DNA of 64,000 bases from Scenedesmus sp. PABB004 (GCA_014905635.1 JABVCE010000012.1:310001-374000); one strand, 5' to 3'. Positions 232 through 63,325 are shown, counted from the first letter of the stretch. Made by a program: numbers and translations. Notes: generated from the sequence alone by a model not told the origin.

Positions 232-2330
232 GGCGGCGCGGTGCAGGGCCCAGGGCGCAGGCGCCGCCCGGCCGGCTGCCCGCGCCGCCGCCGAGGAGGC
301 CCCCGCGCGCCGCCCCGCCACCCACAGCCGCCTCCCTCAGCGCCTCCCTGCCGCACACGCACACGCGCACGCGCCGGCCGCGCCCCTCACAGCGCCCGCA
401 CGCGCCGCGCCACTGTTCGAATCGCAGCCTGCCCCCACCCGCGCCGCGCCCCTGGCCAGGCGGGGCGAGGACCTGCGGGCGCCTGGTGACTAGGCCGTGC
501 CGCCCAGCGCAGCGCCAGGCGAGCCGCGCGCGCGGGCAGGCGGGGAGGGCAGCGGCGGGCGGGCGCGCCGCGCTGCGCGACGCTTGCTGCGGGCGGCGGG
601 GGCACCGGCACGGCGCGGCGGGCGGGCGTGTGGCGTGGGCCGCCGGGACTGCGCGCCTCGGGCGTCGCTGGCAGGCCCGCCGCCGCGCCGCCGCGCCGGG
701 GGCGGGGGGGGGGGGGGGCGGCGGGCGCCGCGCGCTGCTGCTGCTGCTGCTGCGCTCACGCCGCCCGCGCTCGCCCCCGCTGCTGCCGGTGCCCCGCCCG
801 CTGCTCCCTGGTCGACCGCAGGCTGTCAGGTGGCACCATGTCTGCTGCGCTGGCGGGCAAGCGGCACGCCAGGCCGACGACGAGCGTGCTGGCAGCGGCT
901 GCAGCTGCGGCGGGCGAGGCGCCTGGTGGCGCGGAGGCGGCGCCGAGGTGGGCGCGCTGCTGCTGCTGGTGCCCCCTGGCTGGTGCTGCCTGGAACGGCA
1001 CGCGCTGCCCTCCAGGCACCACCGCCCACAGCAGGCGCCGCCTGACGGCTTGCCGCCTGCCCCGCGCGCCCCGTCCTGCGCCGCCAGCAGCCCGTGAGCG
1101 GAGCTGTCCGACCCCCTCGTGCTCCACGTCCTGAGCTTCTGGTCGCTGGCCCTGCGGGCATGGACCGCCAGGCTGGTCTGCAAGGCGGCGCGCGAGCGCT
1201 TCCGCGGCGCCAGGCGCGTCTCGCTGCGCTGCCCGGAGCTGCCGCTGGCGGCGGTGCAGGAGGCGTGGCGGGTGGTGCCGGGTGACAAGGGGGGGAGAGG
1301 TGGCCAGCGCGCGCGCGGCGTGCGGCGACGTGGCGGGGCTGGCCTGGCTGTGCAGCGCCGGCTGCGACATGGATGACAGTGTGGGCTGGGCAGCAGCGGA
1401 GCACGGCCAGCTTGCCGTGCTGGAGTGGGCGCGCGGCGAGGGGCTGGACCCGGGGGGCGTGTGCAGCGGAGCAGCCGCGGGCGGGCAGTGGGCGGTGCTG
1501 CGCTGGGCGCGCGCGCAGACGCCGCCGGCGCCCTGGGGCAAGTACGTGTCCTCCTGGGCTGCGCTGCACGGCGACCTGGAGATGCTGCGCTGGGGTCGCG
1601 CCCAGGTGGAGCCCGCGCCGTGGGACGGCGAAGCGTGTAGGGTGGCGGCTCTGTCTGGGCAGCTTGAGGTGCTGCGCTGGCTGCGCGCCAACGGCTGCCC
1701 GTGGCAGCGCGCCGAGTGCGAGCGCTTGGCGGACCGGCGCCACGCGGCCGTGGTCGCGTGGATCCAGGCGCAGCCCGAGTGAGCTGTCGGGAGCAGCCTG
1801 CGTGAGCTCACTCGAGTGTGTCGGGAGGGCTGGCAAGCAGCGCGCGCCGGCCAGCTTGCCGTGCTGGAGCGGGCGCGCGGCGAGGGACGTTGACATGCGC
1901 GGCGTGTGTGCGTTCGGTGGGCAACTGTCGGCGCAGGCAGGCGCGAGTGGCGCACGGTCACGTGGTCAACGGCCGCCGATGAGTTTTTAGGAGGGGGGAC
2001 GCCGCTTGACTGCCGTTGTCTGCCGCGCCGGTGCGGCGCCCTGTTGCGCGCTGGTCGGGCTCGGCCGTGTGTTGCGCCGCCCCGTTGCAACCTCGACCGC
2101 GCAAGGACGGAGCCGCGCCTGGCCGGCAAGCGCGGCCAGGGTTTTGGGCTGCGGCGCAGGCTTGACGACCTGGCGGCCGCGGCAGCCGCAGCCGCTGTGC
2201 TGCACACCGCCGCTGTGCTGAGACACAGCCGGCACGCCGCCGCCCCATGCGCACCGCTGCATGCCCCGCCGCGCGCTGCCGCCGGCCGGAGCGCGCGCGC
2301 GCTGGCAACCGGCTGACCGCACGGAGCGCT
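232..2330 (+). repeat. F-box/ankyrin cassette copy U1 (leader + gene + 3' tail)
   Basis: Leader starts GGCGGCG(C)GGTGCAGGGCCCAGGGCGCAGGCGCCGCCCGG, as in the other copies. Tail 1783-~2290 is shared with U7 (36726-~37230). CTGGCAACCGG motif near 2303. Confidence 0.9.
838..1782 (+). pseudogene. F-box-like + ankyrin-like repeat gene, probably disrupted (U1)
   Basis: ATG 838; intron 948-1087 (AG|GTGGGC...CTGAC...CAG). In-frame TGA at 1095-1097 replaces the codon that is CTG in most copies. Frameshift near the G-run at ~1290. Repeats HGQLAVLEW...LRWLRANGCPW are otherwise intact. Confidence 0.75.
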
Positions 2331-2514
2331 CCCGGGCGGGCGGCCCGCCTCTCTCATTCACAACAGTCCCGGGCACCACTGCCGCCACCCGCGCCCGCCG
2401 CCGCGCGCCCCGTACAGCCCCTGGACAGCCTCTGCAGCTGGACAGGCGCGTCGGCACGCCATTCAACTCGACCTGCGTGCCCCAAGCTGCAGCCTCACCA
2501 CCCACCCCGCCTTC

Positions 2515-2575
2515 GCGCTGTGCGCTGTGCGCTGTGCGCTGTGCGCTGTGCGCTGTGCGCTGTGCGCTGTGCGCT
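2515..2575. repeat. (GCGCTGT)n heptamer tandem repeat, ~8 units, abutting the TLK stop codon
   Basis: Read directly from the sequence. Confidence 0.95.
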
Positions 2576-3666
2576 CAGCGCTTGAGCTGCAGGTAGGGGT
2601 CCGCCGCCGCGGTGAGCACGTCCCAACGCTCGCCCTGGTCGTACGCGAGGCAGCGCGCCAGGAAGGCGCGGCCCTCCGCCGACACCGCGGGCTTGGCCGG
2701 GAACTGGACCTGCGCGGCGCGCGGCGCGCGCGGCGCGCCGGCGGCGGGTGTGTGCGTGTGCGCGCGCTGGGACGCCCTCACCCGCCCGCACCCGCGCACA
2801 CACATCCACACTCTCCCACGCCCACGCCGCCACCCGCCCTCCCCCTGCCGCGCACCGTGCGGGCGTTGAGCATGACGCCGTCGCGGTAGATCTGCTCCTG
2901 GCTGAGCCCCTCGCCAAAGGGGCGGCGGCCGTAGAGCATCTGGTAGAGGATCACGCCAGCGCTCCACACGTCAACCTGCGGTTGTGCGCGGGCGGTTCAG
3001 GCGGCGGGCCAGGCGGCGGTCCAGGCGGCGGTTTAGGCGGTGGCGGTGTGTGTGTGCACGCGCGCGTGTGGCGGGCAGCAGCGCGTCGGGAGAGGGGGAG
3101 GGGCGCGCGGCGCGGGCGCTCGCGCTCGCGTCGCCCGGCGCGCGGCCGCGCCACACCTTGTTGGAGATGCGCGGCGGGCCGGCGGCGAGCGGCGCGGTGC
3201 CGCCGCCGCCGCCGCCCGCGCCGGCGCCGCCGAGCAGCCCCGCCGGCAGCAGCCCGCCCGCGCCGCCGCCGCCGCCGCCGCCGCCGCCGGGCGCGCGGCC
3301 CGCGGGCGCGGCGTGGCCGTGGCCGTGCCCGTGGCTCGAAGGCTGCGCGAAGCACTCTGGCGGCAGGTACCAGTAAGTCCCCGCGCCCTGGCTGGTCAGC
3401 TCCATGCCCATCGTCTGCCCCTCCTCCACCACCTGCGTCCCGCGCGGGCGCGGCAGCAGCAGCACGCGCAGGGCCGCGTGCGTGGTCGGGGGCCCGCGCG
3501 CCCGGCGGCGGCGGCCCGCCTGCGAAACCACCTGCAAAACCGCCCGCAAAACACTCAGCAGCGCCTGCGCCGCACCTTGCTGAGCCCAAAGTCGGTGATC
3601 TTGACCACGCCCAGGCTGTCAAACAGGATGTTGGCGGGCTTGAGGTCATAATGGATCACGCGCGGC

Positions 3667-3708
<42 letters not shown>

Positions 3709-7489: not shown

Positions 7490-9045
7490 CGTGCGCGGGT
7501 CGGCCGGTTGCCAGCACGCGGCACCGCCGCTCGCCCTTGGCCGCCGCCAACCCTCCTCGCGACGCGCGCACTCGACGAGCCTGCCCCCACCACCGCCACC
7601 GTGGCCGCGCTGCAGGCAGCACGACACGCTCCGCACACGCGCACTAGCCGCCAGCTGCGCCCGCACAGCCAGGCGCCAGCTGCGCGCGCGGCCGGCGCAG
7701 CTGGCTGCTCCCGACACCTCACGGTGCGGGCTCGGCCTGGGCGCGCGCCCAGCGCAGCATCTCCAGGTCGCCGCGCCGCGCAGCCCAGGAGCACACGTAC
7801 TTGCCCCAGGGCAGCGGCGGCGTTTGTGCACGCGCCCAGCGCAGCACACCCAGCTGCCCGCCCCTGGCTGCTTCGTCGCACACGTGACTCAGGTCGAGCC
7901 CCTGGTCGCGCGCCCACTCCAGCACGGCGACCTGGCCGGCGCGCACTGCTACCCAGCACACACTGTCAACCATGTCGCACCCGGCGCCGCGCAGCCAGGC
8001 CAGCACGGCCACGTCGCCACATCCCGCGCGTGCGCTGGCCAGCTGCCACTGGTCCAAACTCTGCACCGCCCGCCACGCCTCCTGCACCGCCGCCAGCGGC
8101 AGCTCGGGGCAGCGCAGCGAGACGAGCGTGGCATCGCGGAAGCGCTCGTGCGTCGCCGTGCAGATCAGCCTGGCAGTCCACGCCTGCAGGGCCGGCGGCA
8201 GGAAGCTCAGGACGTGGAGCACGAGGGGCATGGGCAGCTCCGGCAGCGGGCTGCTGGCGGCGCAGGCGGGCGCGCGGGTGCGGCGGTGAGGCAGCGCGCG
8301 GCGCCTGCTATCGTTGGCTGTGGCTCGCTGCTCAGCGCGCCACAGCACCAACAGCAGCGCGCCCACCTCGCCTCCACGTCCTCGCCGCTGGGCGCCTCGC
8401 CCACCGCCGCTGCCGTGGTCGGCCCGGCGCGCCGCGTGTCCGCCGGCGCAGCAGACATGGTGCCACCTGACAGCCTGCGGGCCAGCAGGGAGCAGCAGGC
8501 GGGGCACCGGCAGCAGCGGGCGCGTGCGCGGGCGGCGTGAGCGCAGCCGCAGCAGCGCGCGGCGCCCGCCCCCGCCCGGCGCGGCGGCGCGGCGGCGGGC
8601 CTGCCAGCGACGCCCAGGGCACGCAGGCCCGGCGGCCCACGCCACACGCCCGCCCGCCGCGCACCGCCGGTGCCCCCGCCGCCCGCAGCGGGCGCCGCGC
8701 AGCGCGGCCCGCCCGCTGCTGCCTGCTCCCCGCCTGCGCGCGCGCGCGGCTCGCCTGGCGCTGCGCTGGGCGGCACGGCCTAGTCACCAGGCGCCCGCAG
8801 GCCCGCGCCCCGCCTGGCCAGGGGCGCGCCGCGGGCAGGGGCGGGCGCTGCGCAGCGGCGGCGCGGCGCGTGCGGGAGCTGTGAGGGCCGCGGCCGGCGC
8901 TCGTGTGCGTGTGCGGCAGGGAGGCGCTGAGGGCGGCGGCTGTGGGCGGCGGGGCGGGTCGAGCGGGGGGCCTCCTCGGCGGCGGCGCGGGCAGCCGGCC
9001 AGGCGGCGCCTGCGCCCTGGGCCCTGCACCGCCGCCCGCGTGGCG
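7490..9045 (-). repeat. F-box/ankyrin cassette copy U2
   Basis: Leader ~9045-8459, gene, then CTGGCAACCGGCCGACC motif near 7500. Confidence 0.9.
7719..8458 (-). CDS. F-box-like + ankyrin-like protein, C-terminal repeat deleted (U2)
   Basis: ATG 8458, conserved intron, LPELPMPLVLHVLSFLPP...LICT. Ends AEPAP* joined directly to the TGAGGTGTCGGGAGCAGCC 3' flank also seen in U7. Confidence 0.75.
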
Positions 9046-9189
9046 CGGCTGCCGGGCGGGCGCGGCGTCGCGGCGCGGCTCGCGGCGCGGCGCGGTTACC
9101 GCCACCGCCGCGCGCGTCAACGGCAGCATGCGCGCGGCGCTCAACTCGCCCCCGCCGCACGCCTCCCCCCCCCCCGGCGTCGAGGGCGC

Positions 9190-11185: not shown

Positions 11186-11236
<51 letters not shown>

Positions 11237-11701: not shown

Positions 11702-12366
11702 CTCGACAGCCGAGCGGCTAGAGTGCGAGGCGTGGGCCACCGCACGGCTGGGCCAGGACCGGAGCCCGACACGCCAGCAGCAGCGGCGGTGCAGGGCGCA
11801 GCGAGCGCCGCCCGCCCGTCTGCCCGCGCCGTGCCGCCGAGGAGGCTCCCGCGCGCCGCCCACAGCCTCCGCCCTCAGCGCCCTGCCTCGCTCCTTGTCT
11901 CGCACCCACACAAGCGCCGGCCGCGGCCCTCTGTCTTGAAAGCCCGCCGCTGCCGTTCGAATCGCAGCCGCCCGCCCCCGCCCGCGGCGCGCCCCTGGCC
12001 AGGCGGGGCGCGGGCCTGCGGGCGCCTGACGGTCGGGCCGTGCCGCCCAGCGCAGCGCCAGGCGAGCCGCGCGCGCGTGCGGGCGGTGAGCAGGGCAGTG
12101 GCTGGCGGCGGGCAGTGCTGCTGCGCGGCGCCCGCTGCGGGCGGCGGGGGCTGCGGCGGTGCGCGGCGGGCGGGCGTGTGGCGTGGAACGCCGGGTCTGC
12201 GCGCCCCGGGTGCCGCTGGCAGGCCCGCCGCCGCGCCGCCGCGCCGGGGCGGCGGGGGCGGGCGCCGCGCGATGCTGCTGCTGCGCTCACGCCGCCCGCG
12301 CACTCGCGCCCGCTGCCGGTGCCCGCCTGCTGCTCCCTGCTGCCCCGCAGGGCCCCAGGCCGTGCC

Positions 12367-13305
12367 ATGTCTGCTGCGCTGTCAGGTGTCTCGCTCAGCG
12401 ACCTGGCGCTGGCGGTGGACGCGGCATCGAGGTGCGGGCGTGCTGCTGCCGCTGCCGCCCCGGGCCGGCACCCCTGGCCTTTCTATGCCTGGCGCGGCAC
12501 GCGCTGCCCACAAGCGACTGCTCCGGAAGCAGGCGGCGCCTCACCAGTCGCCCAACCGCCGCGCCCCACCCGCGCCGCCAGCAGCACCTGGCGGAACCTG
12601 CCGGAGCCGCTCGTGCTCCACGTCCTGAGCTTCCTCCCGCCGGCCCTGCAGCCGTGGGCCGCCAAGCTCGTCTGCAAGGCGGCGCGCGAGCGCTTCCGCG
12701 GCGCGACGGTCGTCGCGCTGCGCTGCCCCGAGCTGCCGCTGGCGGCAGTGCAGGAGGCGTGGCGGGATTTGCACGGTGGCTGGGTGCAGGAGAGCGTGCT
12801 GGCCGAGGCGCGCGCTGCGTGCGGCGACGTCGCGGGGCTGGCCTGGCTGCGCGTCGCCGGCTGCGACATGGATGACTCTGTGTTCAAAGCAGCAGCGGAG
12901 CACGGCCAGGTCGCCGTGCTGGAGTGGGCGCGCGGCAAGGGGCTGCGCATTCGGCGCTTGTGCGAGTTCGCAGCCGAGGGCGGGCAGCTTGCGGTGCTGC
13001 GCTGGGCGCGCGTGCAGACGCCACCGCTGCGCTGGGGCAACCATGTGTGCTCTGAAGCTGCGCTGCGCGGCGACCTGGAGATGCTGCGCTGGGCGCGCGC
13101 CCAGGCGAAGCCCGCGCCGTGGGACAAGGAGGTGTGCCGGATCACCGCTGTGCACGGGCACCTGGAGGCGCTGCGCTGGCTGCGCGCCAACGGCTGCCCG
13201 TGGCTGCGCGCCGAGTGCGAGAGCGACGCAGCGCGCGGCGGCCACGAAGCCGTGGTTGCGTGGATCCGGGCGCAGCCCGCGGCGGCGGACGATGGCTCTG
13301 ATTGA
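12367..13305 (+). CDS. F-box-like + ankyrin-like repeat protein (U3), apparently intact
   Basis: MSAALSGVSLSDLALAVDAA, intron (AG|GTGCGG), WRNLPEPLVLHVLSFLPP...LVCK, four core repeats, LRWLRANGCPW. Confidence 0.85.
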   Translation: MSAALSGVSLSDLALAVDAASRCGRAAAAAAPGRHPWPFYAWRGTRCPQATAPEAGGASPVAQPPRPTRAASSTWRNLPEPLVLHVLSFLPPALQPWAAKLVCKAARERFRGATVVALRCPELPLAAVQEAWRDLHGGWVQESVLAEARAACGDVAGLAWLRVAGCDMDDSVFKAAAEHGQVAVLEWARGKGLRIRRLCEFAAEGGQLAVLRWARVQTPPLRWGNHVCSEAALRGDLEMLRWARAQAKPAPWDKEVCRITAVHGHLEALRWLRANGCPWLRAECESDAARGGHEAVVAWIRAQPAAADDGSD

Positions 13306-14147
13306 CGTCGATCATCTACTTGGACGGGGACTAGGATTGGGGCGAGGCAGGCTCGAGGCTTGGTGCGTGCGCGGGGCGCTGCCTACAGCGTGTGGTGCGC
13401 GCGTGCGTGGCGAGGGAGAGGGAAAAGGGAAGCTGGCGGCGGCGAGGCGGCGCGTGCTGGCAACCGGCCGACCGCGCACGCAGCGCGCCTGGGCGGGTTG
13501 CCCTCTTGCGCGACCACCCGGCGCTGGCAGCGGTGGCACGTCGCCGCGCCGTGCCCCGCAGCGGCCGCACGCGGGCGGCGGTGCAGGCCCAGGGCGCAGG
13601 CGCCGCCCGGCCGGCTGCCCGCGCCGCCGCCGAGGAGGCCTCCCGCGCGCGCCGCCCCGCCGCCCACAGCCGCCGCCCTCTCAGCGCCCCTGCCGCACAC
13701 ACGCACACACGAGCGCCGGCCGCGGCCCTCACAGCTCCCGCACGCGCCGCGCCGCCGCTGCGCAGCGCCCGCCCCCGCCCGCGGCGCGCCCCTGGCCCGG
13801 CGGGGCGCGGCCGTGCGGGCGCCTGGTGACTGGATCGTGCCGCCCAGCGCAGCGCCAGGCGAGCCGGGCGCGCGGGCGGGGAGGGCGGCAGGCGGGCCGC
13901 GCTGCGCGGCGCCTGCTGCGGGCGGCGGGGGCACCGGCGGTGCGCGGCAGGCGGGCGTGTCGCGTGGACCGGCGGGTCTGCGCGCCTGGAGCGCCGCTTG
14001 CAGGCCTGCCGCCGCGCCGCCGCGCCGGGGCGGGGGCCGGGCGCCGCGCGCTGCTGCTGCTGCGCTCACGCCGCCCGCGCGCTCGCCCGCTGCTGCCGGT
14101 GCCCCGCCTGCTGCTCTCTGGTGACCCGCAGGCTGTCAGGTGGTACT

Positions 14148-15245
14148 ATGTCTGCTGCGCCGGCGGGCAAGCGGCACGCCGGGCCGACCACGCACGCGGG
14201 GGTGGGCGAGGCAGCGGCAGCAGGCGAGACACCGGCTGGGGCAGAGGCGGCGCCGTGGTGGGTCCGCTGGCTGCTGCTATTAGTGCACCCTGGCTGGTGC
14301 TGCCTGGCACGGCACGCGCTGCCCACAAGCCACCACCGCCGGCAGCGCGCGCCGCCTGACAGCTTGCCGCCTGCCCTGCGCGCCCCGCCCCGCGCCGCCA
14401 GCAGTCCGCTGCCAGAGCTGCCGCAGCCCCTCGTGCTCCACGTCCTGAGCCTCCGGCTGCCGGCCCTGCAGGCGTGGGCCGCCAGGCTGGTCTGCAAGGC
14501 GGCGCGCGAGCGCTTCCGCGGCGCCACGGACATCTCGGTGCGCTGCCCCGAGCTGCCGCTGGCGGCGGTGCGGGAGGCCTGGCGGGCGGCGCAGGGTGAA
14601 GGGTGGGAGCAGCAGCGGCGGCTGGCCAACGCGCGCGCGGCGAGCGGCGACGTGGCGGGGCTGGCCTGGCTACACAGCGCCGGCTGCGACATGGGCAGCG
14701 ATGTGGGTTACACAGCCGCATTACACGGCCAGCTCGCCGTGCTGAAGTGGGCGCGCGACGAGGAGCTCAACCTGCGGGGCGTGGGCCGGGCAGCGGCGGA
14801 GCACGGCCAGCTCGCTGTGCTGGAGTGGGCGCGCGGCGAGGGGCTGGACCTGGGGGGCGTGTGCCACGCAGCAGCCGCGAGCGGGCAGCTGGGCGTGCTG
14901 CGCTGGGCGCGCGCGCACACGCCGCCGCTGCCCTGGGGCGACCGGGTGTGCTTCTGCGCTGCGGCGCGCGGCGACCTGGAGGTGCTGCGCTGGGCGCGTG
15001 CCCAGGAGGAGCCCGCGCCGTGGGGCGAGCTCACGTGCGAGGCGGCGGCTCGCTCCGGGCAGCTGGAGGTGCTGCGCTGGCTGCGCGCCAACGGCTGCCC
15101 GTGGTGGCGCCGTGTGTGCGAGCGCGTGGCGGTATGCAATTGCCACGAGGCCGTGGTCGCGTGGATCCGGGCGCAGCCTGACTCGCCGGACGAGGGCGGC
15201 GGGGCGAATCGGCTGTGGTGGGTGGCGGCCTCTGTAGGCTGTTGA
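14148..15245 (+). CDS. F-box-like + ankyrin-like repeat protein (U4), five core repeats
   Basis: ATG 14148, conserved intron, LPELPQPLVLHVLS, extra HGQLAVL repeat. Confidence 0.85.
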   Translation: MSAAPAGKRHAGPTTHAGVGEAAAAGETPAGAEAAPWWVRWLLLLVHPGWCCLARHALPTSHHRRQRAPPDSLPPALRAPPRAASSPLPELPQPLVLHVLSLRLPALQAWAARLVCKAARERFRGATDISVRCPELPLAAVREAWRAAQGEGWEQQRRLANARAASGDVAGLAWLHSAGCDMGSDVGYTAALHGQLAVLKWARDEELNLRGVGRAAAEHGQLAVLEWARGEGLDLGGVCHAAAASGQLGVLRWARAHTPPLPWGDRVCFCAAARGDLEVLRWARAQEEPAPWGELTCEAAARSGQLEVLRWLRANGCPWWRRVCERVAVCNCHEAVVAWIRAQPDSPDEGGGANRLWWVAASVGC

Positions 15246-29595: not shown

Positions 29596-30071
29596 AGTGG
29601 CTCGAGGCAGAGGGCTCAACAGGGCTCAACAACAGGGCTCAACAGGGTTCAAGGGTTCGAGGGCGCGCGCGCGGGGAGAAGGAAAGGTCCTGGGAGGGGG
29701 CGCTGGCAGCGGCGGCGGCGAGGGGCACTGGGCAGGGCGCTGCGGCGGCCAGCGGGGCAGGGGGGGGAGCAGCGGCCGGCCGGCGGGGCAGGGCCGCGAC
29801 GCGGCGCGGAGGGAGCGAGGGGCGGAGCGAGGGAGCTGGGGGCGCGCTGCGCGGCACGGGCGCCCGGCGCGGGCGCTGCTGGACTGAACCCCACACGGCG
29901 GCCGGGCGCAGGGGCGCGTCGCTTTTTCTGGCTCGGGAGCCTCCCGGCCGGCGCGCGCGCGGCGCGCGCTGAGTAAAAACGCTCGCGGAGGGTCCATGTC
30001 ATGGCGCCGTTGCTGGGTGCTGGCGGCGGCGGCACGTCGCCGCGCCGCGCCCACCCGGCAGCGGCGCCACG

Positions 30072-32380: not shown

Positions 32381-32488
32381 TCAGGCCGCCGCTGCTGCCG
32401 CTGCCGGCGGCCGGCCGCCGCTGCTGCCGCTGCCGCCGGGGCGCCGACGCCCGCCGCCCTGCTGCTCGCGCGTGGCCAGGGCCGCGCG

Positions 32489-35009: not shown

Positions 35010-37230
35010 GGGCGGCGGTGCAGGGCCCAGGGCCCAGGCGCCGCCCGGCCGGCTGCCCGCGCCGCCGCCGAGGAGGCCCCCGCGCGCACCGCCCCGCCGC
35101 CCACAGCCGCCGCCCTCTCAGCACCCCTGCCACACGCACACACACGCACGAGCGCCGGCCGCGGCCCTCGCAGTTCCCGCACGCACCGCGCCGCCGCCGC
35201 CCAGCACCCGCCCCCGCCCGCGGCGCGCCCCTGGCCAGGCGGGGCGCGGACCTGCGGGCACCTGGTGACTGGATCGTGCCGCCCAGCGCAGCGCCAGGCG
35301 AGCCGGGCGCGCGGGCGGGGAGGGCGGCGTGCGGGCGGGCGCGCTGCGCGGCGCCCGCTGCGGGCGGCGGGGGCACTGGCGGTGCGCGGTGGGCGGGCGT
35401 GTAGCGTGGATCGGCGGGTATGCGCGCCCCGGGCGCCGCTGGCAGGCCCGCCGCCGCGCCGGGGCGGGGGCGGGCGCGGCGCGCTGCTGCTGCCGCGCTC
35501 ACGCCGCCTGCGCGCTCGCCCGCTGCTGCCGCCGCTCCGCCTGCTGCCCCCTGGTGGTCCGCAGGCTGTGAGGTGGCACCATGGCGTCTGCGCCGGCGGG
35601 CAAGCGGCACGCCGGGCCGACCACGAGCGCGCACGCGGCCGCAGCGGCGGCAGGCGAGGCACTGGCGGGGGCCGAGGCGGCGCCGAGGTGGGCGCGCTGC
35701 TGCTGCTGCTGCTGCTGGTGCCCCCTGGCTGATGCTGCCTGGCGCGGCACGCGCTGCCCACGAGCCACCACCGCCGGCAGCAGGCGCCGCCTGACCGCCC
35801 GCCGCCCGCCCCGCTCGCCCTCGCTCCGCGCCGCCAGCAGCCTGTGGGCGGAGCTGCCTGAGCCCCTCGTGCTTCACGTCCTGAGCTTCCTGCCGCCGGC
35901 CCTGCAGGCGTGGGCAGCCAAGCTGGTCTGCAAGGTGGCGTGCGAGCGCTTCCGCGGCGCCACGGTCGTCTCCCTGCGCTGCCCCGGCCTGCCGCTGGCG
36001 GCGGTGCAGGAGGCCTGGCGGGCGGTGCTTGCTGCCAAGCAGGGTGACAAGTGGCTGAAGCGGCAGCGGGTGACCAAGCGGCAGGAGCAGTGGCAGCGGC
36101 GGGCGGTGAAGCATCACAAGCGGCAGCAGTGGCGGCTGGCCAACGCGCGCGCGGTGTGCGGCGACGTGGCGGGGCTGGTCTGGCTGCGCGGCGCCGGCTG
36201 CGACATGGATGACATGTCTTTGAACGACGGCGTGCGCTACACAGCAGCGCGCGCCGGCCAGATCGCCGTGCTGGAGTGGGCGCGCGGCGAGGGGCTGGAC
36301 CTGCGGTATGTGTGCTACGAAGCAGCGCGCGCCGGCCAGGTCGCCGTGCTGGAGTGGGCGCGCCGCAAGGGGCTGTACCTGGGGCACGTGTGCTGCCATG
36401 GAGCAGCCTCTGGCGGGCAGCTGCATGTGCTGCGCTGGGCGCGCGCGCAGACTCCGCCGGCGCCCTGGGGCGATCGGGTGTGCTCCTGCGCTGCGCAGCG
36501 CGGCGACCTGGAGATGCTGCGCTGGGCGCGCGCGCCCAGGCTGAGCCCGCGCCGTGGGACGAGGAGGCGTGCGAGGCGGCGGCCGGAAACGGGCAGCTGG
36601 AGGCGCTGCGCTGGCTGCGCGCCAACGACTGCCCGTGGGACCGCGCCGCGTGCGAGCGCACGGCGGCCAGGCCGTGGCGTCGCGACGAGGCCATGCTCGC
36701 GTGGATCCAGGCGCAGCCCGAGTGAGGTGTCGGGAGCAGCCTGCGTAAGCTCACTCGAGTGTGTCGGGAGGGCTGGCAAGGAAGCAGGAAGCATCGCGCA
36801 CCGGCCAGCTTGCCGTGCTGGAGCGGGCGCGCGGCAAGGGACGTTGACGTGCGCGGCGTGTGTGCGTTCGGTGGGCAGCTGTCGGCGCAGGCAGGCGCGA
36901 GTGGCGCACGGTCGCGTGGGTCCATGGCCGCCGATGAGTTTTAGGAGGGGGGACGCCGCTTGACTGCCGCTGTCTGCCGCGCCGGTGCGGCGCCCTGTTG
37001 CGCGCTGGTCGGGCTCGGCCGCGTTGGGCCGCCCCGTTGCAACCTCGACCGCGCAAGGACAGAGCCGCGCCCGGCGGCCGTCGAGGCTAGTGTTTTGTCG
37101 CTGCGGCGGAGGCTTGAACGACCTGGCCGCCGCCGCCGCTGTGCTGCACACCGCTGCTCTGCTGCAGACACAGCCGGCTCGCCGCCGCCCCACGCGCACC
37201 GCTGCATGCCCCGCCGCGCGCTGCCGCCGA
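35010..37230 (+). repeat. F-box/ankyrin cassette copy U7 with 3' tail shared with U1
   Basis: Leader starts ~95 bp after the QTRT2 stop. Tail 36726-~37230 matches 1783-~2290. Confidence 0.9.
35581..36725 (+). pseudogene. F-box-like + ankyrin-like gene (U7) with +2 frameshift near 36530
   Basis: Extra CG in a GCGCGC run shifts the last repeat into another frame (real mutation or assembly error). Expanded basic linker KQGDKWLKRQRVTKRQEQW... Confidence 0.7.
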
Positions 37231-39481: not shown

Positions 39482-39648
39482 TCACTCGGGCTGCGCCGTG
39501 ATCCACGCGACCACCGCCTCATGGCCCTTGCGCGCCACCTCGTGCTCGCACGCGCCGCGCTCCCACAGGCAGCCGTTGGCGCGCGGCCAGCGCAGCGCCT
39601 CCAGCTGCCCGGGCGGCGCCTGCGCCCTGGGCCCTGCACCGCCGCCCC
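39482..39648 (-). repeat. Internally deleted cassette U8 (leader start fused to last repeat and stop)
   Basis: Junction ...CTCCAGCTGCCCGG|GCGGCGCCTGCGCCCTGGGCCCTGCACC; spacer motif (GTTGCCAG) at ~39730. Confidence 0.85.
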
Positions 39649-39878
39649 GCGTGGCGCTGCTGCCGGGCGGGCGCCGAAGCGTGTGCGCGCACCACCCAGG
39701 CCGCGTCGGTGCCGTGCGCGTTCAGCCGGTTGCCAGCACCGACGGCCGCTCGCCAGGTCAGATCAGCTTGAACACGGTGCTTTCAAAACACCGGTGCTTC
39801 CAAAACACTGCAGTGATCTCCGGAAGGCGGCTGCCCGTTCAGCTGCAGGCGCCAGCTCCCCCCCCCCCGGCCGTGCGC

Positions 39879-44311: not shown

Positions 44312-45201
44312 GCTCCCCGCCGGCGCCTGGGCCCGCGCCGTGGCGACGGCCCACCCTGTAGGCGCTCACCAGCAGCGCTCGTCGCAGACAGGCTGACGGC
44401 GGGGGCAGTCGCGGGCGGGCGGCGTGAGCGCAGCAGCAGCAGCAGCGGCGCGCCGCGCCCGCCCCCGCCCCGGCGCGGCGGCGCGGCGGCAGGCCTGCCA
44501 GCGGCGCCCGGGGCGCGCAAGCCCAGCATTCCACGCCACACGCCCACCCGCCGCGCACCGCCGGTGCCCCCGCCGCCCGCAGCGGGCGCCGAGCAGCGGC
44601 GCGGCCCGCCCGCCGCCGCTGCCTGCTCACCGCCTGCCCGCGCGCCCGGCTCGCCTGGCGCTGCGCTGGGCGGCACGTGCTAGTCACCAGGCGCCCGCAG
44701 GCCCGCGTCCCGCCTGGCCAGGGGCGCGCCACGGGCGGGGGGCGGGCGCTGGGTGCGGCGCGGTGCGTGCGGGCGCTGTGTGGGCCGCGGCCGGCGCTCG
44801 TGTGTGCGCGTGGCAGGGGGGGGGGGGGGGGGGCTGAGAGCGGCGGCTGTGGGCGGCGGGGCGGCGCGCGCGGGGGCCGTCCTCTGCGGCGGCGAGGGCA
44901 GCCGGCCGGGCGGCGCCTGCGCCCTGGGCCCTGCACCGCCGCCCGCGTGCCGCCGCTGCCGGGCGGGCGCGACGTGCTGCCGTCAGCACAGTGACGGCGC
45001 GGGAGTGCGACCCGCCCAGGTGCACTGCGTGCGCGGTCGGCCGGTTGCCAGCACGCACCGCCTCGCCGCTGCCAGCTTCCCTCTCCCTCTCCCTCGCCAC
45101 GCACGCGCACCATGCCGCAAGCAGCGCCCGCACGCACGCGCGCCCAGCCACGGGCCTGCCTCACCTCGCCCTGATCGTAGTCCGCGTCCGAGCTGTGAAG
45201 G

Positions 45202-46132
45202 TCAGAAATCGCGAGAGTCGTCGTCCAGCGACGCGGGCTGCGCCCGGATCCACGCGACCACGGCCTCGTGGCCACGCATGGCCGCCCAGTTCTCGCACTC
45301 GCGACGCCACCACGGGCAGCCGTTGGCGCGCAGCCAGCGCAGCACCTCCAGGTGCCCGTTCGCGGCCGCCATGCAGCACGCCCTGCAGTCCCACGGCGCG
45401 GGCTCGGCCTGGGCGCGCAGCCAGCGCAGCAGCTCCAGGCCGGGGCAGTGCGCAGCGAAAACACACTCCAGGCCGCCCCAGGGCAGCGGCGGCGTCTGCG
45501 CGCGCGCCCAGCGCAGCACACCCAGCTGCCCGCCCGTGACTGCGTTGGTGCACGCGTCCCACAGGTCCAGCCCGTTGTCGCGCGCCCACTCCAGCACGGC
45601 GACCTGGCCGAGCGCCGCTGCTGCTTCGCACACAGAGTCATCCATGTCGCAGCCGGTGCCGCGCAGCCAGGCCAGCCCCGCCACGTCGCCGCACGCCGCG
45701 CGCGCCTCTGTCAGCCGCCTCTGCTGCTCCCACCCTTCACCCTGCAACGCCCGCCAGGCCTCCTGCACCGCCGCCAGCGGCAGCTCGGGGCAGCGCAGCG
45801 AGACGTCCGTGGCGCCGCGGAAGCGCTCGTACGCTGCCTTGCAGACCAGCTTGGCGGCCCACGCCTGCAGGGCCGGCGGCAGGAAGCTCAGGACGTGGAG
45901 CACGAGCGGCTCGGGCAGCTCTGGCAGCGGGCTGCTGGCAGCGCGGGCGGTGAGCGGCCGGGCGGCATGGGTGGCGTGGCGGGCCGAGGTGCGCGCAGCA
46001 GCCGCTGGTTCATTCGCAGCGCCCCCTGGCCAGGCAGCACCGGCCATGAGACGCCTCGCCACACGCGCACCTCGCCTCTGCGACCTCCGCCAGCATCAGA
46101 CCGCTGAGCGAATGCTCTACCAGCGAGGCCAT
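45202..46132 (-). CDS. F-box-like + ankyrin-like repeat protein (U10), apparently intact
   Basis: MASLVEHSLSGLMLAEVAEA, phase-2 intron (AG|GTGCGC), LPELPEPLVLHVLSFLPP, four core repeats. Confidence 0.85.
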
Positions 46133-46764
46133 GGCGCCACCTGGGGGCCATGCAGGCCACCAGGGAGCAGCAGGCGGGGCGCCGGCCACAGCGGGGCGAG
46201 CGCGCGGGCGGCGTGAGCGCGGCAGCCGCAGCAGCGCGCGGCGCCCGCCCCGGCGCGGCGGCGCGGCAGCGGGCCTGCCAGCGGCGCCAGGGGCGCGCAG
46301 GCCCGGCGTTACACGCGACATGCCCGCCCGCCGCGCACCGCCGGTGCCCCCGCCGCCGCCAGCGGGCGCCGCGCAGTGCTGACCGGCCTCCGCTGCCCTC
46401 CCCGCCTGCCCGCGCGCCCGGCTCGCCTGGCGCTGTGCTGGGCAGCACGACCTAGTCACCAGGCGCCCGCAGGACCGCACTCCGCCTGGCCAGGGGCGCG
46501 CCGCGGGCGGGGGCGGGCGCGGGGCGGCGGCGGTGTGTGCGGGCGGGCGCTGTGAGGGCCGCGGCCGGCGCTTGTGCGTGTGCGTGTGTGTGGCAGGGGC
46601 GATGAGGGCAGCGGCTGTGGGCGGCGGGGCGGCGCGCGCGGGAGGCCTCCTCGGCGGCGGCGCGGGCAGCCGGGCGGCGCCTGCGCCCTGGGCCCTGCAC
46701 CGCCGCTCACCCACCGAGGTCGCTGCAAGCGCCGGCAACGATAGGAGGTTCAACCCCTCCCAGC

Positions 46765-48053
46765 TCACTCGGGCTGATCCCAAATCCACAAAAACACGGC
46801 CCCGTGGCGACCTGCCGATGCTTCCATCATGCAGTCGCCGCGCCGCCAGGGGCAGCCGTTGGCACGCGCCCAGCGCAGCACGTCCAGGTGCCCGAAGCGA
46901 GCCGCGCGCCAGCACACCCACTTGTCCCACGGCGCGGGATCGGCCTGGGCGCGCGCCCAGCGCAGCATCTCCACGTCGCCGCGCGCCGCAGCCTCCCAGC
47001 ACATGCCGCCCCAGGGCAGCGGCGGCGTCTGCGCGCGCGCCCAGCGCAGCACATCCCAGTGCCCACCGTAGGCTGCTCCGCTGCACACGTGCTCCAGGTC
47101 CAGCCCCTGATCTCGCGCCCACTCCAGCACGGCGAGGTGGCCGCGCCGCGCTGCTGCGGAGCCCACACCGCCCATCCAACAGCCGGTGCCGTGCAGCCAG
47201 GCCAGCCCCGCCACGTCGCCGGCCGCCGCGCGCGCCCCCGGCAGCTGCAGCTGCCACCATGCTGGCCAGAACTGTGCCGCCAGCCGCGCCTCCAGGACCG
47301 CCGCCAGCGGCAGCTCGGGGCACCACAGCATGTCATATGACATGGCGCCGCGGAAGCGCTCGCGCGCCGCCTTGCAGACCAGCTTGGCAGTCCACGCCTG
47401 CAGGGACGACGGCAGGAAGCTCAGGACGTGGAGCACGAGCGGCTGTGGCAGCTCTGGCAGCAGGGTGCTGGCGGCACGGGCGGGGCGCGGGCAAGCGGGC
47501 GGGCGGCGGGCGGTCAGGCGGCGCCTGCTGCCGGCGGTGGCGGCTCGTGGGCAGCGCGTGCCGCGCCAGGCAGCACCAGCCAGGGGGCTCCAGCAGCAGC
47601 AGCTGCCCCACGGCAGCACCAGCCAGGGGGCTCCAGCAGCAGCAGCTGCCCCACCTCGGCGCCGCCTCTGCCCCCGCCGGTGCCTCGCCTGCTGCCGCTG
47701 CGGCCGCCGCCCGCGCGCTCGTGGTCGGCCCGGCGTGCCGCTTGCCCCCCGGCGCAGCAGACAAGGCACGGCCTGGGCGCCTGCGGGGCAGCAGGGAGCA
47801 GCGGGCGGGGCATCGGCAGCAGCGGGCGTGAGCGCGCGGGCGGCGTGAGCGCAGCAGCAGCGGTGGCGCCCATCCGACAGCGCGTGCCGCGCCAGGCAGC
47901 ACCGGCCAGGGGTCACCAGCGGCAGCAGCAGCGGACCCACCTCGACGCCGCCTCTGCCCCAGCCGGTGCCTTGTCCGCCGCCACCGCTGCGGCAGCCGCC
48001 CGCGCGCGCGTGGTCGGCCCGGCGTGCCGCTTGACCGCCGGCGCAGCAGACAT
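46765..48053 (-). CDS. F-box-like + ankyrin-like repeat protein (U11), with duplicated exon-1 region
   Basis: ATG 48053. A second exon-1-like segment (ATG changed to TTG) lies at ~47860-47650. Acceptor near 47466; ends WIWDQPE*. Confidence 0.75.
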
Positions 48054-48740
48054 GGCGCCACCTGACAGCCTGCAGGCCACCAGGGAGCAGCAGGCGGGGC
48101 GCCGGCAGCAGCGTGCGAGCGCGCGGGCGGCGTGAGCGCAGCAGCAGCAGCGCGCGGCGCCCGCCCCCGCCCCGGCGCGGCGGCGCGGCGGCGGGCCTGC
48201 CAGCGGGGCCCGAGGCGCGCAGACCCGGCGGCCCACGCCACACGCCCGCCCGCCGCGCATCGCCGCAGCCCCCGCCGCCCCGCAGCGGGCGCCGCGCAGC
48301 GCGGCCCGCCCGCCGTCGCTGCCCTCCCCGCCCGCCCGCGCGCCCGGCTCGCCTGGCGCCGCGCTGGGCGACACGATTTAGACACCAGGCGCCCGCAGGC
48401 CCGCGCCCCGCCTGGCCAGGGGCGCGCCGCAGGCGGGGGCGGGCGCTGGGCGGCGGCGCGGCGCGTGCGGGCGCTGTGAGGGCCGCGGCCGGCGCTCGTG
48501 TGTGTGCGTGTGTGGCAGGGGTGCTGACGGCGGCGGCTGTGGGCGGCGGGGCGGCGCGCGCACAGGGGGCCTCCTCGGCGGCGGCGGGGGCAGCCGGCTG
48601 GGCGGCGCCTGCGCCCTGGGCCTGCACCGCCGCCTGGTGCGGCCGCTGCCGGGCGGGCGCGGCGCCTGGGCCTGGCGGCAGCACGGATGCGTGTGCGCGC
48701 GCACGGCCCACCAAGGCGCTTGCTCGCGGCATGCGCGTCC

Positions 48741-60328: not shown

Positions 60329-61272
60329 TCACTCGGGCTGCGCCCGGATCCACGCGGCCACGGCCTCGTGGCCACGGCCCGCCGCAGACTCGCACCAGTC
60401 GCGCCGCCAGGGGCAGCCGTTGGCGCGCAGCCAGCGCAGCGCCTCCAGGTGCCCGCGGTCAGCCGCCGCCCAGCACACCCACTCGTCCCACAGAAAGCCG
60501 TTGGCGCGCAGCCAGCGCAGCATCTCCAGGTCGCCAAGCCGCGCAGCGTCGTAGCACACGTGCGTGCCCCACGGCAGCGGCGGCGTCTGCGCGCGCGCCC
60601 AGCGCAGCACCGCCAGCTGCCCGCCCTCGGCTGCTGCGTTGCACACGCCCCCCAGGGCCAGCCCCTCGCCGCGCGCCCACTCCAGCACGGCGAGCTGGCC
60701 GTGCTCCGCTGCTGCCCAGCACACGCTGTCCATGTCGCAGCCGGCGCCGCGCAGCCAGGCCAGCCCCGCCACGTCGCCGCACGCCGCGCGCGCCCCTGCC
60801 AGCTCCCTCTGCTTCTCGTCACCCTGCACCGCCCGCCAGGCCTCCCGCATCGCCGCCAGCGGCAGCTCGGGGCAGCGCAGCGCGACGACCGTCGCGCCGC
60901 GGAAGCGCTCGCGCGACGCCTTGCAGACCAGCTTGGCGGCCCACGCCTGCAGGGCCAGCGGCAGGAAGCTCAGGACGTGGAGCACGAGCGGCTCGGGCAG
61001 CTCCGGCAGCGGGCTGCTGGCGGCGCGGCGCGGTGCGGTGGGGCGGGCGGGCGGGCGGCGGGCGGTCAGGCGGCGCCTGCTGCCGGCGCCAGGCAGCACT
61101 AGCCGGGGGTGCCGCGCCGGGCAGCACTAGCCGGGGGTTGCCAGCAGCAGCAGCAGACCCACCTCTGCGCCGCCTCCGCCCCAGCCGGCGCCTCGCCCGC
61201 CACCGCTGCGGCCGCCCCGCGTGCGCTCGTGGTCGGCCCGGCGCGCCGCTTGACCGCCGGCGCAGCAGACAT
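60329..61272 (-). CDS. F-box-like + ankyrin-like repeat protein (U12), apparently intact
   Basis: ATG 61272, intron AG|GTGGGT. Two terminal-type modules: LRWLRANGFLW and LRWLRANGCPW. Confidence 0.85.
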
Positions 61273-62102
61273 GGTGCCGCCTGACAGTCTGCGGGCCACC
61301 AGGGAGCAGCAGGCAGAGAGCCGCCAGCAGTGGGCGAGCGCGTGGGCAGCGTGAGCGGCAGCAGCAGCGCGCGGCGCCGCGCCCGCCCCGGCGCGGTGGC
61401 GCGGCGGCGGGCCTGCCAGCGACGCCCGGGGCGCGCAGGCCCGGTGGACCACGCGACATGACCGCCCGCCACGCACCGCCGGTGCCCCCGCCGCCCGCGG
61501 TGGGCGCCGCGCAGCGCGGCGCGCTGCTGCTGCCCTCCCCCGCGCGCGCGGCTCGCCTGGCGCTGCGCTGGGCGGCACGGCCTAGTCACCAAGAGCCCGC
61601 AGCGCGTCGCCCCGCCTGGCCAGGGGCGCGCCACGGGCGGGGCCGGGCGCGGGGCGGCGCGGCGCGTGCGTGCGGCGATGTGCGGGCCGCGGCCGGCGCT
61701 CGAGTGTGTGTGCGTGTGGCAGAGGCGCTGAGGGCGGCGGCAGTGTGGGGCGGCGGGGCGGCGCGCATAGGGGGCCTCCTCGGCGGCGGCGCGGGCAGCC
61801 GGCCAGGCGGCGCTCGCTGCGCCCTGGGCCCTGCACCGCCGCCCCCGCGCCGCCGCTGCCGGGACGGCGCGGCGCGTCGACGTGCTGCCGCCGCCAGCGC
61901 CCAGCGACGGCGCGGGAGTGCGACCCGCCCAGGTGCACTGCGCGCGCGGTCGGCCGGTTGCCAGCGCTTGCCGCCCTCGCCGTCGCCAACTTCCCTCCCC
62001 TCTCCCTCGCCACGCACGCGCGCACCACCACGACGCTGGCAGCGCCCCCCGCACACGCACGCGCGCCCAGCCACGGGCCTGCCTCGCCTCGCCCTGGCCG
62101 CG

Positions 62103-63325
62103 CTAGGCGGCGCGCTGCGCGTCGCCCTCGAGGGCGACGTCCGAGTCCCCCTCCCCCACCCCGTCCTCGTCCTCCTCCCAATCGTCCGAGTCCTCCCCCA
62201 CCCCGTCCTCGTCCGCCTCCCCATCGCCCGAGCCCCCCTCCCCCTCCCCTCCTCCCCCTCCCCCTCCCCCTCCCCCTCGTCCTCGTCCTCCCCCTCGTCC
62301 TCGTCCTCATCATCCGCGAACAAGCTGAGGAAGGCAAGGAAACGGGCAATCTCAGGGTGGTCGTCCGCCGACACGGGCTGCGCTCGGATCCACGCGACCA
62401 CGGCCTCGTGGCCAAGGACAAACGCCCCGTCCTCGCACTGCATGCGCTGCCACGGGCAGCCGTTGGCACGCAGCCAGCGCAGCGCCTCCAGGTGCCCGTG
62501 CGCAGCCGCCAGCCTGCACACCTCCTTGTTCCACGGCGCGGGCTCGTCCTGGGCGCGCACCCAGCGCAGCATCTCCAGGTCGCCGCGCTCCGCAGCGAAC
62601 CTGCACACCCAGTCCCCGTCCCACGGCACCGGCGGCATCTGCGCGCGCGCCCAGCGCAGCACATCCAGCTGCCCGCCCGCGGCAGCTCCGCAACAAGCGT
62701 TCCACAGGTCCAGCCCCTCGCCGCGCGCCCACTCCAGCACGGCGAGCTGGCCGGCGCGTGCTGCCTTGTGGACCCCGCCGTGCACGTTGCAGCCGGCGCC
62801 GCGCAGCCAGGCCAGCCCCGCCACGTCCCCGCACGCAGCGCGCGCCCCGGCCAGCCGCGACTGCTGCCGCCCATCACCCTGCAACGCCCGCCACGCCTCC
62901 TGCACCGCCGCCAGCGGCAGCTCGGGGCAGCGCAGCGAGACGACCGTGGCGCCACGGAAGCGCTCGTGCGCCGCCTTGCAGACCAGCTTGGGGCACCACG
63001 CCTGCAGGGCCAGCGGCAGGAGGTCCAGGACATGGAGCACGAGCGGCTCGGGCAGCTCCGGCAGCGGGCTGCTGGCGGCGCGGCGGGGCGAGGGCGAGCG
63101 GGGCGGGCGGAGGGCGGTCAGGCGCGCCTGCTGCCGGCGGTGGTGGTTCGTGGGCAGCGCGTGCCGCTCCAGGCAGCATCAGCCAGGGGGGCCCCAGCAG
63201 CAGCAGCAGCGGCCCCAACTCGGCGCCGCCTCGGCCCCCGCCGGTGCCTCGCCTGCTGCCGCTGCGGCCGCGCATGCGCTCGTGGTCGGCGCGGCGTGCC
63301 GCTTGCCCGCTGGCGCAGCAGACAT
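62103..63325 (-). pseudogene. F-box-like + ankyrin-like gene (U13) with mutated splice donor and acidic tail
   Basis: Donor is AG|TT at 63218 instead of AG|GT, and the unspliced frame stops within the intron. Long D/E/G tail with frameshifts in G-runs. Confidence 0.6.

Follow-up and report, generated by a model that had tools for sequence, protein, structure and literature searches.

F-box-like genes with hypervariable short ankyrin repeats in the green alga Scenedesmus sp. PABB004: a putative receptor family under probable diversifying selection

The subject of this report is a window of 64,000 nucleotides from the unicellular green alga Scenedesmus sp. PABB004 (assembly GCA_014905635.1, JABVCE010000012.1:310001-374000), and all positions below are counted from the first letter of that window. 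It is eukaryotic DNA of 74-84% GC, in keeping with the source genome, for which a comparative paper gives a size of 39.8 Mb, 78.5% GC and 7,092 genes (PMC12571836). Self-comparison of the window uncovers ten paralogous units of roughly 1.7-1.9 kb each, lying on both strands and spanning positions 172-63912, and each unit carries a gene that joins an F-box-like motif to a series of short ankyrin repeats (ANK). A sequence-only reading of this DNA had likened the encoded proteins to a natural library of designed ankyrin repeat proteins (DARPins) and had proposed diversifying selection on target recognition. The analysis described here leads us to conclude that the genes probably belong to a large, lineage-specific, green-algal family of substrate receptors for the SCF (SKP1-cullin-F-box) ubiquitin ligase, with diversifying selection acting on one face of the ankyrin domain.

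Every unit is built in the same order, with some 650 nt of conserved non-coding DNA at the 5' end leading into a short exon 1, followed by an intron and by exon 2. In the unit alignment, exon 1 is Ala-rich and opens with a conserved ATG, and the intron borders read G/GTGGG and CAGCAG/; the intron measures 113-156 nt, with a length of 473 nt in copy u09 only. Exon 2 codes in a single frame for the F-box-like motif and for six to eight ankyrin repeats of 26-29 aa. The splice structures and lesion calls given below are computational, and a public gene model backs u03 only, the spliced product of which is the NCBI protein HT031_004001 of this alga, encoded on a 1.235-Mb contig. A tandem CAGCAG (NAGNAG) acceptor closes the intron in most copies, for example at 12576-12584 and 61016-61024; the public model of u03 takes the second AG, and use of the first would insert one extra Ser.

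Intact spliced frames are present in six of the ten copies. Three of these lie on the plus strand, namely u03 (11783..13494; ATG 12367, exon 1 to 12431, exon 2 12582-13305; 261-262 aa), u04 (13520..15245; ATG 14148, exon 1 to 14257, exon 2 from 14402; 317 aa, with one extra 26-aa repeat) and u05 (30012..31765; ATG 30650, exon 1 to 30759, exon 2 30916-31765; 319 aa, also with one extra repeat). The other three lie on the minus strand: u08 (44995..46706; ATG 46132, exon 1 to 46071, exon 2 45934-45202; 264 aa), u09 (46765..48665; ATG 48053, exon 1 to 47941, exon 2 47467-46765; 271 aa), which is the most divergent copy and owes its long intron to an internal duplication, and u10 (60329..61913; ATG 61272, exon 1 to 61163, exon 2 61016-60329; 265 aa), the copy that was modelled. 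In u10 the F-box-like motif (PLPELPEPLVLHVLSFLP...KLVCK..., residues 1-50 of exon 2) occupies 60863..61012 and the ankyrin domain, with six helix-turn-helix repeats of 26-29 aa, occupies 60332..60799, both on the minus strand.

The remaining four copies carry lesions. Copy u01 (172..1886, plus strand; ATG 838, exon 1 to 947, exon 2 from 1088, end of the ANK frame at 1782) is a pseudogene: an in-frame TGA lies just 5' of 1098, near the beginning of exon 2, and the frame shifts at about 1290. Copy u02 (7720..9075, minus strand; ATG 8458, exon 1 to 8367, exon 2 from 8253) is truncated by a premature stop at 7719-7721 after ...AQAEPAP, with the last two repeats gone and a spliced open reading frame (ORF) of 208 aa. 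Copy u06 (35010..36840, plus strand; ATG 35581, exon 1 to 35687, exon 2 from 35838) is frameshifted by a 2-nt insertion at about 36535, after LRWARA, and its ANK frame picks up again at 36537-36722. Finally, u11 (62352..63912, minus strand; ATG 63325) has an intact exon 2, but its conserved splice donor reads TT rather than GT, and no in-frame spliced model was found for it. Besides the ten units, the window holds three fragments: the 5' non-coding part of a unit directly 3' of u05 (31893..32436, plus strand), the start of a 5' region joined to a last ANK repeat and tail (39484..39674, minus strand), and another 5' non-coding part directly after u08 (44411..44974, minus strand). A tblastn search with one copy returned exactly ten copies and one fragment, at 39485-39625.

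The repeats take the form xxVCxxAAxxGxLxxLxWxRxxxxPxPW, with a period of 26-29 residues and a spacing of 78-87 nt, and so depart from the canonical 33-residue period with its TPLH motif and beta-hairpin finger. The Pfam family Ank_4 nevertheless scores above its cut-off in all three copies tested (28.7-38.1 bits against 22.7). The AlphaFold2 model of u10 has a mean predicted local distance difference test score (pLDDT) of 87.9, with values of 92-98 in the repeats; it contains six helix pairs and no beta strands. The best Foldseek matches of this model are all ankyrin domains, namely those of Espin, FEM1C (a receptor of CRL2), DARPins and ankyrin-B/AnkB, with template modelling scores of about 0.5-0.56 for a query that included the F-box. 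In the alignment with Espin, the conserved Cys falls at canonical position 8, the L of TPLH, and xVCx stands in place of TPLH. The loop that forms the canonical beta-hairpin finger is 4-7 residues shorter here and is conserved. To judge from the sequences, the domain is a short-loop ankyrin subtype that is common to many protist homologues. Neighbouring repeats of a single protein have 61-67% DNA identity (families D10 and D18).

Upstream of the repeats, exon 2 opens with PLPELPEPLVLHVLSFLPPALQAWAAKLVCKAARERFRG, a nearly invariant stretch within a region in which 28 of the 64 columns are invariant among the copies, and the N-terminal motif of about 45 aa fits the pattern LPxE..L..IL..L....L.....VCK. 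At E<=0.1, PF12937 (F-box-like) matches eight of nine copies and PF00646 (F-box) matches six of nine. Among PDB sequences, the top match is the F-box of FBXO2 (E 8.6e-4), and when a profile of the N-terminus is used, the five best PDB matches are all F-box proteins (FBXO2, MAX2/D3), aligned at the F-box with E 0.009-0.03. Precomputed F-box Pfam matches exist on the paralogues P0122 and P0124 and on many distant homologues, and UniRef calls the relatives in Raphidocelis and Chloropicon 'F-box domain-containing'. Within this part of the AlphaFold2 model, helices are predicted at residues 7-14, 19-29 and 31-36, with pLDDT values there of 69-75.

How is variation distributed over these proteins? 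The ten variable peptides quoted in the sequence-only reading are each present exactly once in the window, five per strand (plus strand: 1450-1482, 12949-12981, 14850-14882, 31370-31402 and 36379-36414; minus strand: 7860-7892, 45532-45564, 47065-47097, 60623-60655 and 62675-62707). The intervening scaffold had been called nearly fixed, and this wording is apt, since it is not fixed outright: the exact string GQLAVLEWARGEGL occurs in five places, GDLEMLRWARAQ in three and LRWLRANGCPW in seven. In the alignment of the ten copies, one or two residue types fill each scaffold column, against four to seven at the x positions of xxVCxxAAxxG, so that the residues around AAxxG are indeed hypervariable. 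Such positions occur in every one of the repeats R2-R6, beyond the junction first quoted, in contrast to a conserved N-terminal capping repeat and F-box.

The variable codons are arranged with marked regularity. With a posterior above 0.9 for omega>1 under model M2a, 28 of 228 codon columns are flagged, and these fall almost entirely in the ankyrin domain (27 columns, with one in the linker and none among the 60 of the F-box). When the columns are assigned to canonical ankyrin positions, 21 of the 25 columns at positions 6, 9, 10, 13 and 14 are flagged, compared to three of the 29 at positions 5, 7, 8, 11, 12 and 15 (Fisher p 4e-8) and one of the 36 in helix 2. Positions 6/9/10/13/14 form an i, i+3, i+4, i+7, i+8 pattern with a mean wheel angle of 170 degrees, and the conserved V, C, A, A and G lie on the opposite face of helix 1. 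This helix is the inner one in the model of u10. According to the cited portions of two studies, inner helices and loop make up the concave ligand face of ankyrin domains (PMC1261162, PMC4986451). The variable face would be the binding face of the algal proteins. The flagged sites lie on this inner-helix face, which includes positions 13 and 14, the two helix positions randomised in DARPins, and they are predicted to be exposed rather than buried.

The rates of substitution were analyzed with our own GY94-type likelihood program using F61 codon frequencies; when data simulated from M1a were supplied as a check, the program returned likelihood ratio test (LRT) values of 0-3.6 in 12 replicates. 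A likelihood approach was taken because third codon positions are 92% GC, which makes simple counts of dN/dS unreliable. By such counts the ratio is 0.80 in the F-box, 0.84 in the scaffold and 1.74 (dN 0.91, dS 0.52) at 30 x positions defined by motif offset, a class, also used in a 29-codon fit considered below, that is slightly out of register in R3 and R6 (indel columns). A corrected set of 32 columns was chosen after viewing the data and is therefore circular, and the mixture tests were relied on instead.

With all ten copies, model M0 gives an omega of 0.59. The F-box has an omega of 0.30 (p 1e-7 for omega<1) and the ANK scaffold one of 0.49, also significantly below 1. Adding a class of positively selected sites improves the fit greatly, with twice the log-likelihood difference (2dlnL) equal to 181.9 for M1a versus M2a (15% of sites at omega 8.4) and 166 for M8a versus M8. 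The comparison of M7 with M8, which had been proposed as the check on the selection hypothesis, is overwhelmingly positive (2dlnL 202), yet it also fires on rate heterogeneity. The fast class makes up about 15-19% of codons and has, under M2a and M8, an omega of 6.7-8.4. Together with the low omega values of the F-box and scaffold, this confined class is at odds with a uniform spread of variation at dN/dS near 1, the pattern expected of neutral decay. In these data, however, the standard tests are unable to tell selection apart from heterogeneous rates, since neutral fast sites reproduce most of the M1a/M2a signal.

A rate-aware test was therefore built from two three-class mixtures with class-specific synonymous rates, in which the omega of the fast class is either set to 1 or left free. 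Under null simulation its LRT ranged from 0 to 5.5, and one of ten replicates exceeded 3.84. For the ten copies on one tree, the observed value is 9.78 (p 0.0018), with 19% of sites in the fast class, a synonymous rate there of 3.2 times and an omega of 2.35; on three partition-specific trees it is 4.07 (p 0.044). The seven copies with intact exon 2 give 28.6 (p 9e-8) on one tree and 11.1 (p 9e-4) on partition trees, and the six fully intact copies give 13.1 (p 3e-4) on one tree. Three of the five fits put the fast-class omega at 1.6-2.4; the two single-tree fits of intact copies gave about 27-30, and estimates of 27-37 for intact copies are distrusted because the sites are saturated. An omega above 1 is significant in all five settings, which supports the proposal of diversifying selection; target recognition would be what drives it.

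An independent line of argument comes from absolute divergence. Non-synonymous divergence at the x positions (0.91) is about three times that of the intron (0.29), about seven times that of the 5' flank (0.13) and about five times the synonymous divergence of the scaffold (0.17), the intron and 5' figures being Jukes-Cantor (JC) divergences of the non-coding DNA in the units. Raw differences at codon positions 1 and 2 reach 0.59 and 0.68 in flagged codons, against 0.10 in codons only 1-3 away. Because neutral change cannot outpace local mutation by 3-7-fold, either amino-acid change has been favoured at the x codons or mutation has been targeted to them.

The copies have also exchanged sequence with one another. 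The nearest neighbour of each copy shifts along the unit, which indicates that gene conversion operates; for example, u04 and u05, separated by 16.5 kb, have 97-100% identity across some 500 nt of their 5' region and 87% in exon 2. The tree of exon 2 is star-like, with internal branches making up 7% of its length and bootstraps of 27-62. Because gene conversion can inflate site tests, the tests were repeated with partition trees, and M1a versus M2a then gave 109 and 101.5. Conversion between repeats was considered as a source of the variation and was rejected, given that repeat-specific synonymous spellings of Ala are kept: the Ala codons between the variable pairs read GCT GCG in all ten copies in R4, and GCA in nine of ten in R3.

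The window contains only part of the family. The domain is present in at least 27 annotated PABB004 proteins, of which 23 lie on the 1.235-Mb contig that encodes u03; their numbered locus tags extend from HT031_003954 through HT031_004038. A hidden Markov model (HMM) made from the window copies finds 53 domain matches in 27 annotated proteins, the set from which copy number was taken; 33 of the matches begin at the F-box, and among the 19 that cover at least 75% of the HMM, only one is identical to a window copy. For a broader comparison, 25 near-full copies were assembled from the seven window copies with intact exon 2 and 18 others. All 25 have a different residue signature at the 20 variable-face positions of R2-R5, and the patches of single repeats are nearly all unique (23 of 24, 24 of 25, 22 of 22 and 23 of 23). 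Entropy averages 2.69 bits across the variable face, compared with 0.46 for the buried face and 0.53 for the F-box. The best match outside the genome, in Raphidocelis, is 41% identical, and proteins with an F-box and short ankyrin repeats also occur in Chloropicon, in Balamuthia and in many environmental eukaryotes. No viral relatives were found when viral contigs were scanned with u10.

Public annotation obscures much of this, because it merges many copies with adjoining housekeeping genes and thereby leaves the family invisible in gene-family surveys. The fused models (P0122-P0136, P0141, P0142, P0144, P0151, P0170, P0171, P0180 and P0185) include chimeras of up to 1,966 aa with as many as four copies, and carry names such as histone deacetylase-like amidohydrolase, aspartyl aminopeptidase, BGL1A and fbiC. 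Just one of the ten window copies, u03, is recovered as an annotated protein of its own.

These results suggest the following scheme. The conserved F-box-like motif would dock on SKP1 of an SCF ubiquitin ligase, with the ankyrin solenoid gripping the protein that is to receive ubiquitin. The family grows by tandem duplication, loses members by pseudogenisation and exchanges segments by gene conversion, and change favoured at five positions per repeat (6, 9, 10, 13 and 14) would give each copy a different recognition surface on a constant scaffold. Diverse or changing targets would be the selective agent.

Several observations weigh against this interpretation. With regard to the F-box, all Pfam scores are below the curated cut-off (19.2 bits at best, against 24.3), and the pLDDT over this part of the u10 model is only 54-75. 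The surface exposure of the variable face is argued from helix periodicity and is a prediction, and four of the ten copies are damaged. Gene conversion is pervasive and the tree is star-like, a known inflator of site tests. A simulated neutral class evolving at six times the rate produced an M1a/M2a 2dlnL of 80-154 in ten of ten replicates, against 174-182 observed. Synonymous change is itself raised in the fast codons, where 27.8% of same-residue pairs use different codons versus 9.7% elsewhere, and third positions are A/T in 20% of fast codons versus 5.6% of the others. The fast sites are near saturation and their omega is poorly bounded; the 29 motif-defined x codons, when given their own synonymous rate, have an omega of 1.35 that does not differ significantly from 1 (p 0.32); and the rate-aware test on ten copies with partition trees reaches only the p of 0.044 given above.

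Could these features reflect relaxed constraint, in a decaying or weakly needed family that keeps its fold residues while exposed positions drift neutrally at an omega of about 1? The apparent excess would then come from low, constrained synonymous rates at 92% GC in third positions and from artefacts of the models. The lesions, the M0 omega and the pooled NG86 ratio of 0.8 even in the F-box would fit such a picture, as would the non-significant fit of the x codons and the ability of neutral fast sites to reproduce the standard LRT; in addition, hypervariation at ligand contacts is general to ankyrin repeats, according to the cited part of one study (PMC1261162). We consider this explanation unlikely all the same. 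Neutral drift cannot outrun the intron, the 5' flank and adjoining synonymous sites, as divergence at the x sites does, and codon positions 1 and 2 differ much more in fast codons than in slow codons nearby. The signal also becomes stronger when lesioned copies are left out, and the observed rate-aware LRT of 9.78 lies above all ten null simulations. A quite different possibility is that the diversity is old, or is an artefact of recombination: conversion would homogenise scaffold, intron and flanks, making them look young, while the x codons keep old differences, through removal of converted variants or through shuffling of modules out of a paralogue pool that is much larger and older. On this view no new amino-acid changes are driven, and those of long standing are retained and reassorted. 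The mosaic relationships of the copies are in keeping with this idea, including the u04/u05 contrast between 5' region and exon 2, the different trees given by the three partitions, and x codons that some pairs have in common in one repeat only (u01/u02 in R4 versus R3). There are many more copies in the genome to draw on, and an older coalescence would raise the synonymous rate at the same codons, as is seen. Yet variable codons are interleaved with invariant ones at intervals of 1-3 codons, too finely for conversion tracts, which are unable to leap over individual codons. The repeat-specific Ala spellings imply that no tracts from other repeats have passed through, and the tests with partition trees are still significant under both the standard and the rate-aware models. 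Moreover, this account itself needs selection that favours diversity at the x codons, and we judge it to have a rather small chance of being the correct one.

The last alternative is that mutation, not selection, is focused on the x codons, by a mechanism like that of diversity-generating retroelements or hypermutation. The raised synonymous rate of the fast class (relative values of 3.2-6) and its excess of A/T-ending codons would be expected on these grounds, but the synonymous rise shrinks to 1.5-2.4 with intact copies only, and the adjoining scaffold codons are untouched. All bases and all three codon positions vary, rather than one template base. In a Pfam scan at E<=1e-5, no reverse transcriptase or transposase was detected among the 137 ORFs of at least 200 aa outside the units; with no reverse transcriptase there and changes that are not adenine-specific, a diversity-generating retroelement was not found, a template repeat as such not having been specifically sought. 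We know of no codon-precise system of targeted mutagenesis in eukaryotic germlines, and this explanation seems very improbable.

If diversifying selection on an SCF receptor family is indeed the explanation, what might the receptors be for? It is possible, and we offer this tentatively, that they constitute a germline-encoded repertoire in which dozens of SCF receptors, with ankyrin surfaces that differ from one to the next and that point change and module exchange have diversified, catch foreign or selfish proteins (viral, parasitic or transposon-derived) for the proteasome. In that event, the at least 23 clustered gene models on one contig would mark an immune-type locus, an algal counterpart of the F-box/MATH 'intracellular pathogen response' of nematodes and of the NLR repeat repertoires of fungi. 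Very little is known about recognition of viruses and intracellular parasites in green microalgae, and large, fast-evolving receptor families are its usual genomic footprint. Because the scaffold is constant and one face variable, swaps of that face between copies could show what is bound and degraded. The family may also offer a natural alternative to DARPin design, in which the face of helix 1 is varied instead of the beta-turn tips, and so could inform the engineering of binders. A more general lesson is that tests of the M7/M8 type overstate the case when substitution rates vary among sites.

Several further aspects of the locus deserve description. Copies u03 and u04, u08 and u09, and u10 and u11 form head-to-tail pairs, and these pairs, together with shared junction sequence, indicate tandem duplication. 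The notion that the units are transposon cargo was rejected on these grounds and because the Pfam scan of ORFs turned up no transposase or reverse transcriptase in the window. A stray piece of ankyrin repeat (AGQLAVLERARGEG...) lies just 3' of both u01 (1827-1886) and u06 (36787-36840); the 3' flanks of these two copies are about 91% identical, which implies that a longer duplicated segment is common to both units. No other part of the unit is as well conserved as the roughly 650 nt ahead of each start codon (mean pairwise identity 85-89%; JC distance lower than in the intron), although they are non-coding and their indels do not come in multiples of 3; the spans include 172-838, 8459-9075, 11783-12366, 13520-14147, 30012-30649 and 35010-35580. 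This conservation points to a shared promoter or 5' untranslated region under constraint, or to a hotspot of gene conversion. At the other end of the gene, the frame of u11 continues past WIRAQP into an acidic tail rich in D, E and G (62150-62350, minus strand). Shorter acidic tails are found in u03, u05 and u08, as well as in P0004 and P0005, and others stop right after WIRAQPE, so that the family has two C-terminal forms.

Between the copies lie ordinary genes, identified by Pfam as encoding a protein kinase, a diphthamide synthesis protein, a queuine tRNA-ribosyltransferase, a TauE-type exporter, a serine carboxypeptidase and a short-chain dehydrogenase. No tRNA genes were found in the 64-kb window. 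The segment 48700-60300 is 83-84% GC, with Ala/Gly-rich triplet repeats and open frames of up to about 1,300 codons on both strands, and no ORF of at least 200 aa within it has a Pfam match at E<=1e-5. The intergenic and intronic DNA at 20-30 kb is rich in C-rich low-complexity runs (CCCTCC, CACCCA, poly-C and CT repeats), located at 20260-20400, 21040-21480, 25920-26080, 27410-27880 and 28620-29560, and this zone coincides with the lowest GC of the window (74-75%) and with negative GC skew.

Expanded families of F-box receptors are reportedly treated by Thomas (2006, Genome Res 16:1017). The closest parallels to the algal family may be those of nematodes and land plants, in which, according to the passages cited, a conserved F-box under purifying selection is joined to a C-terminal target-recruiting domain (FBA/FTH, Kelch, LRR) under positive selection, with lineage-specific tandem expansion and many pseudogenes (PMC8665587, PMC3719486). 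The present family differs in its host, a unicellular green alga whose genome measures 39.8 Mb, and in its recruiting domain, which is a shortened ankyrin solenoid and none of FBA, FTH, Kelch or LRR; its selected sites occur in strict repeat register, five per repeat. FBA genes are said in the cited passage to be almost absent in green algae (PMC3719486).

A second parallel is provided by the ANK, TPR and WD repeats of fungal NOD-like receptors (NLRs), namely the HNWD family of Podospora and its relatives, where a constant repeat scaffold likewise carries a few selected positions. In the cited portion of that work, the selected positions of the ANK repeats sit on the concave face, in its inner helices and loop, and recombination occurs both between repeats and between family members (PMC4986451). 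The partner domain here is an F-box, and no NACHT or NB-ARC (NOD) domain was detected in a Pfam scan of the copies. In addition, adjacent repeats, at 61-67% DNA identity, are less alike here than in the fungal proteins, for which >85% amino-acid identity is given in that portion, and the diversity seen here is between paralogues, the only comparison made, rather than between alleles.

The likeness to DARPins, from which the sequence-only reading started, holds in part. In both cases a fixed consensus scaffold carries a few variable surface positions per repeat, and positions 13 and 14, which close helix 1, vary in both, being flagged here in eight of ten columns. The randomised positions of DARPins, as listed in the cited text, are 2, 3, 5, 13, 14 and 33 (PMC1261162). 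The algal repeats, whose loop is Pro/Trp-rich (TPPLPW, EPAPW, GCPW), offer nothing equivalent to beta-turn positions 2, 3 and 33, and position 5 is flagged in only one of five repeats. Instead, positions 6, 9 and 10 vary here (13 of 15 columns flagged), and these are the T, H and L of TPLHL that are fixed in DARPins.

Ankyrin repeats serve elsewhere as substrate-binding modules of ubiquitin ligases, as in FEM1 of CRL2, and FEM1C is among the best fold matches of the algal domain. The ASB proteins and the poxvirus ANK/PRANC proteins are further ankyrin-repeat receptors of cullin-RING ligases. Legionella AnkB, as described in the cited passage, even combines an F-box with ANK repeats in one protein (PMC5506055). 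FEM1, ASB, PRANC and AnkB proteins differ from the present family in that they are encoded by single genes or small families with no library-like variation, and PRANC is C-terminal; no sequence relationship to cullin-RING ankyrin receptors was found beyond the common domains. We found no description of an F-box-ankyrin family in green algae in the full-text literature, judged mostly from the listings of papers. The best reading is that of a probable SCF substrate-receptor family in a green alga, with a constant F-box joined to an ankyrin domain whose inner-helix face is driven to differ between copies.

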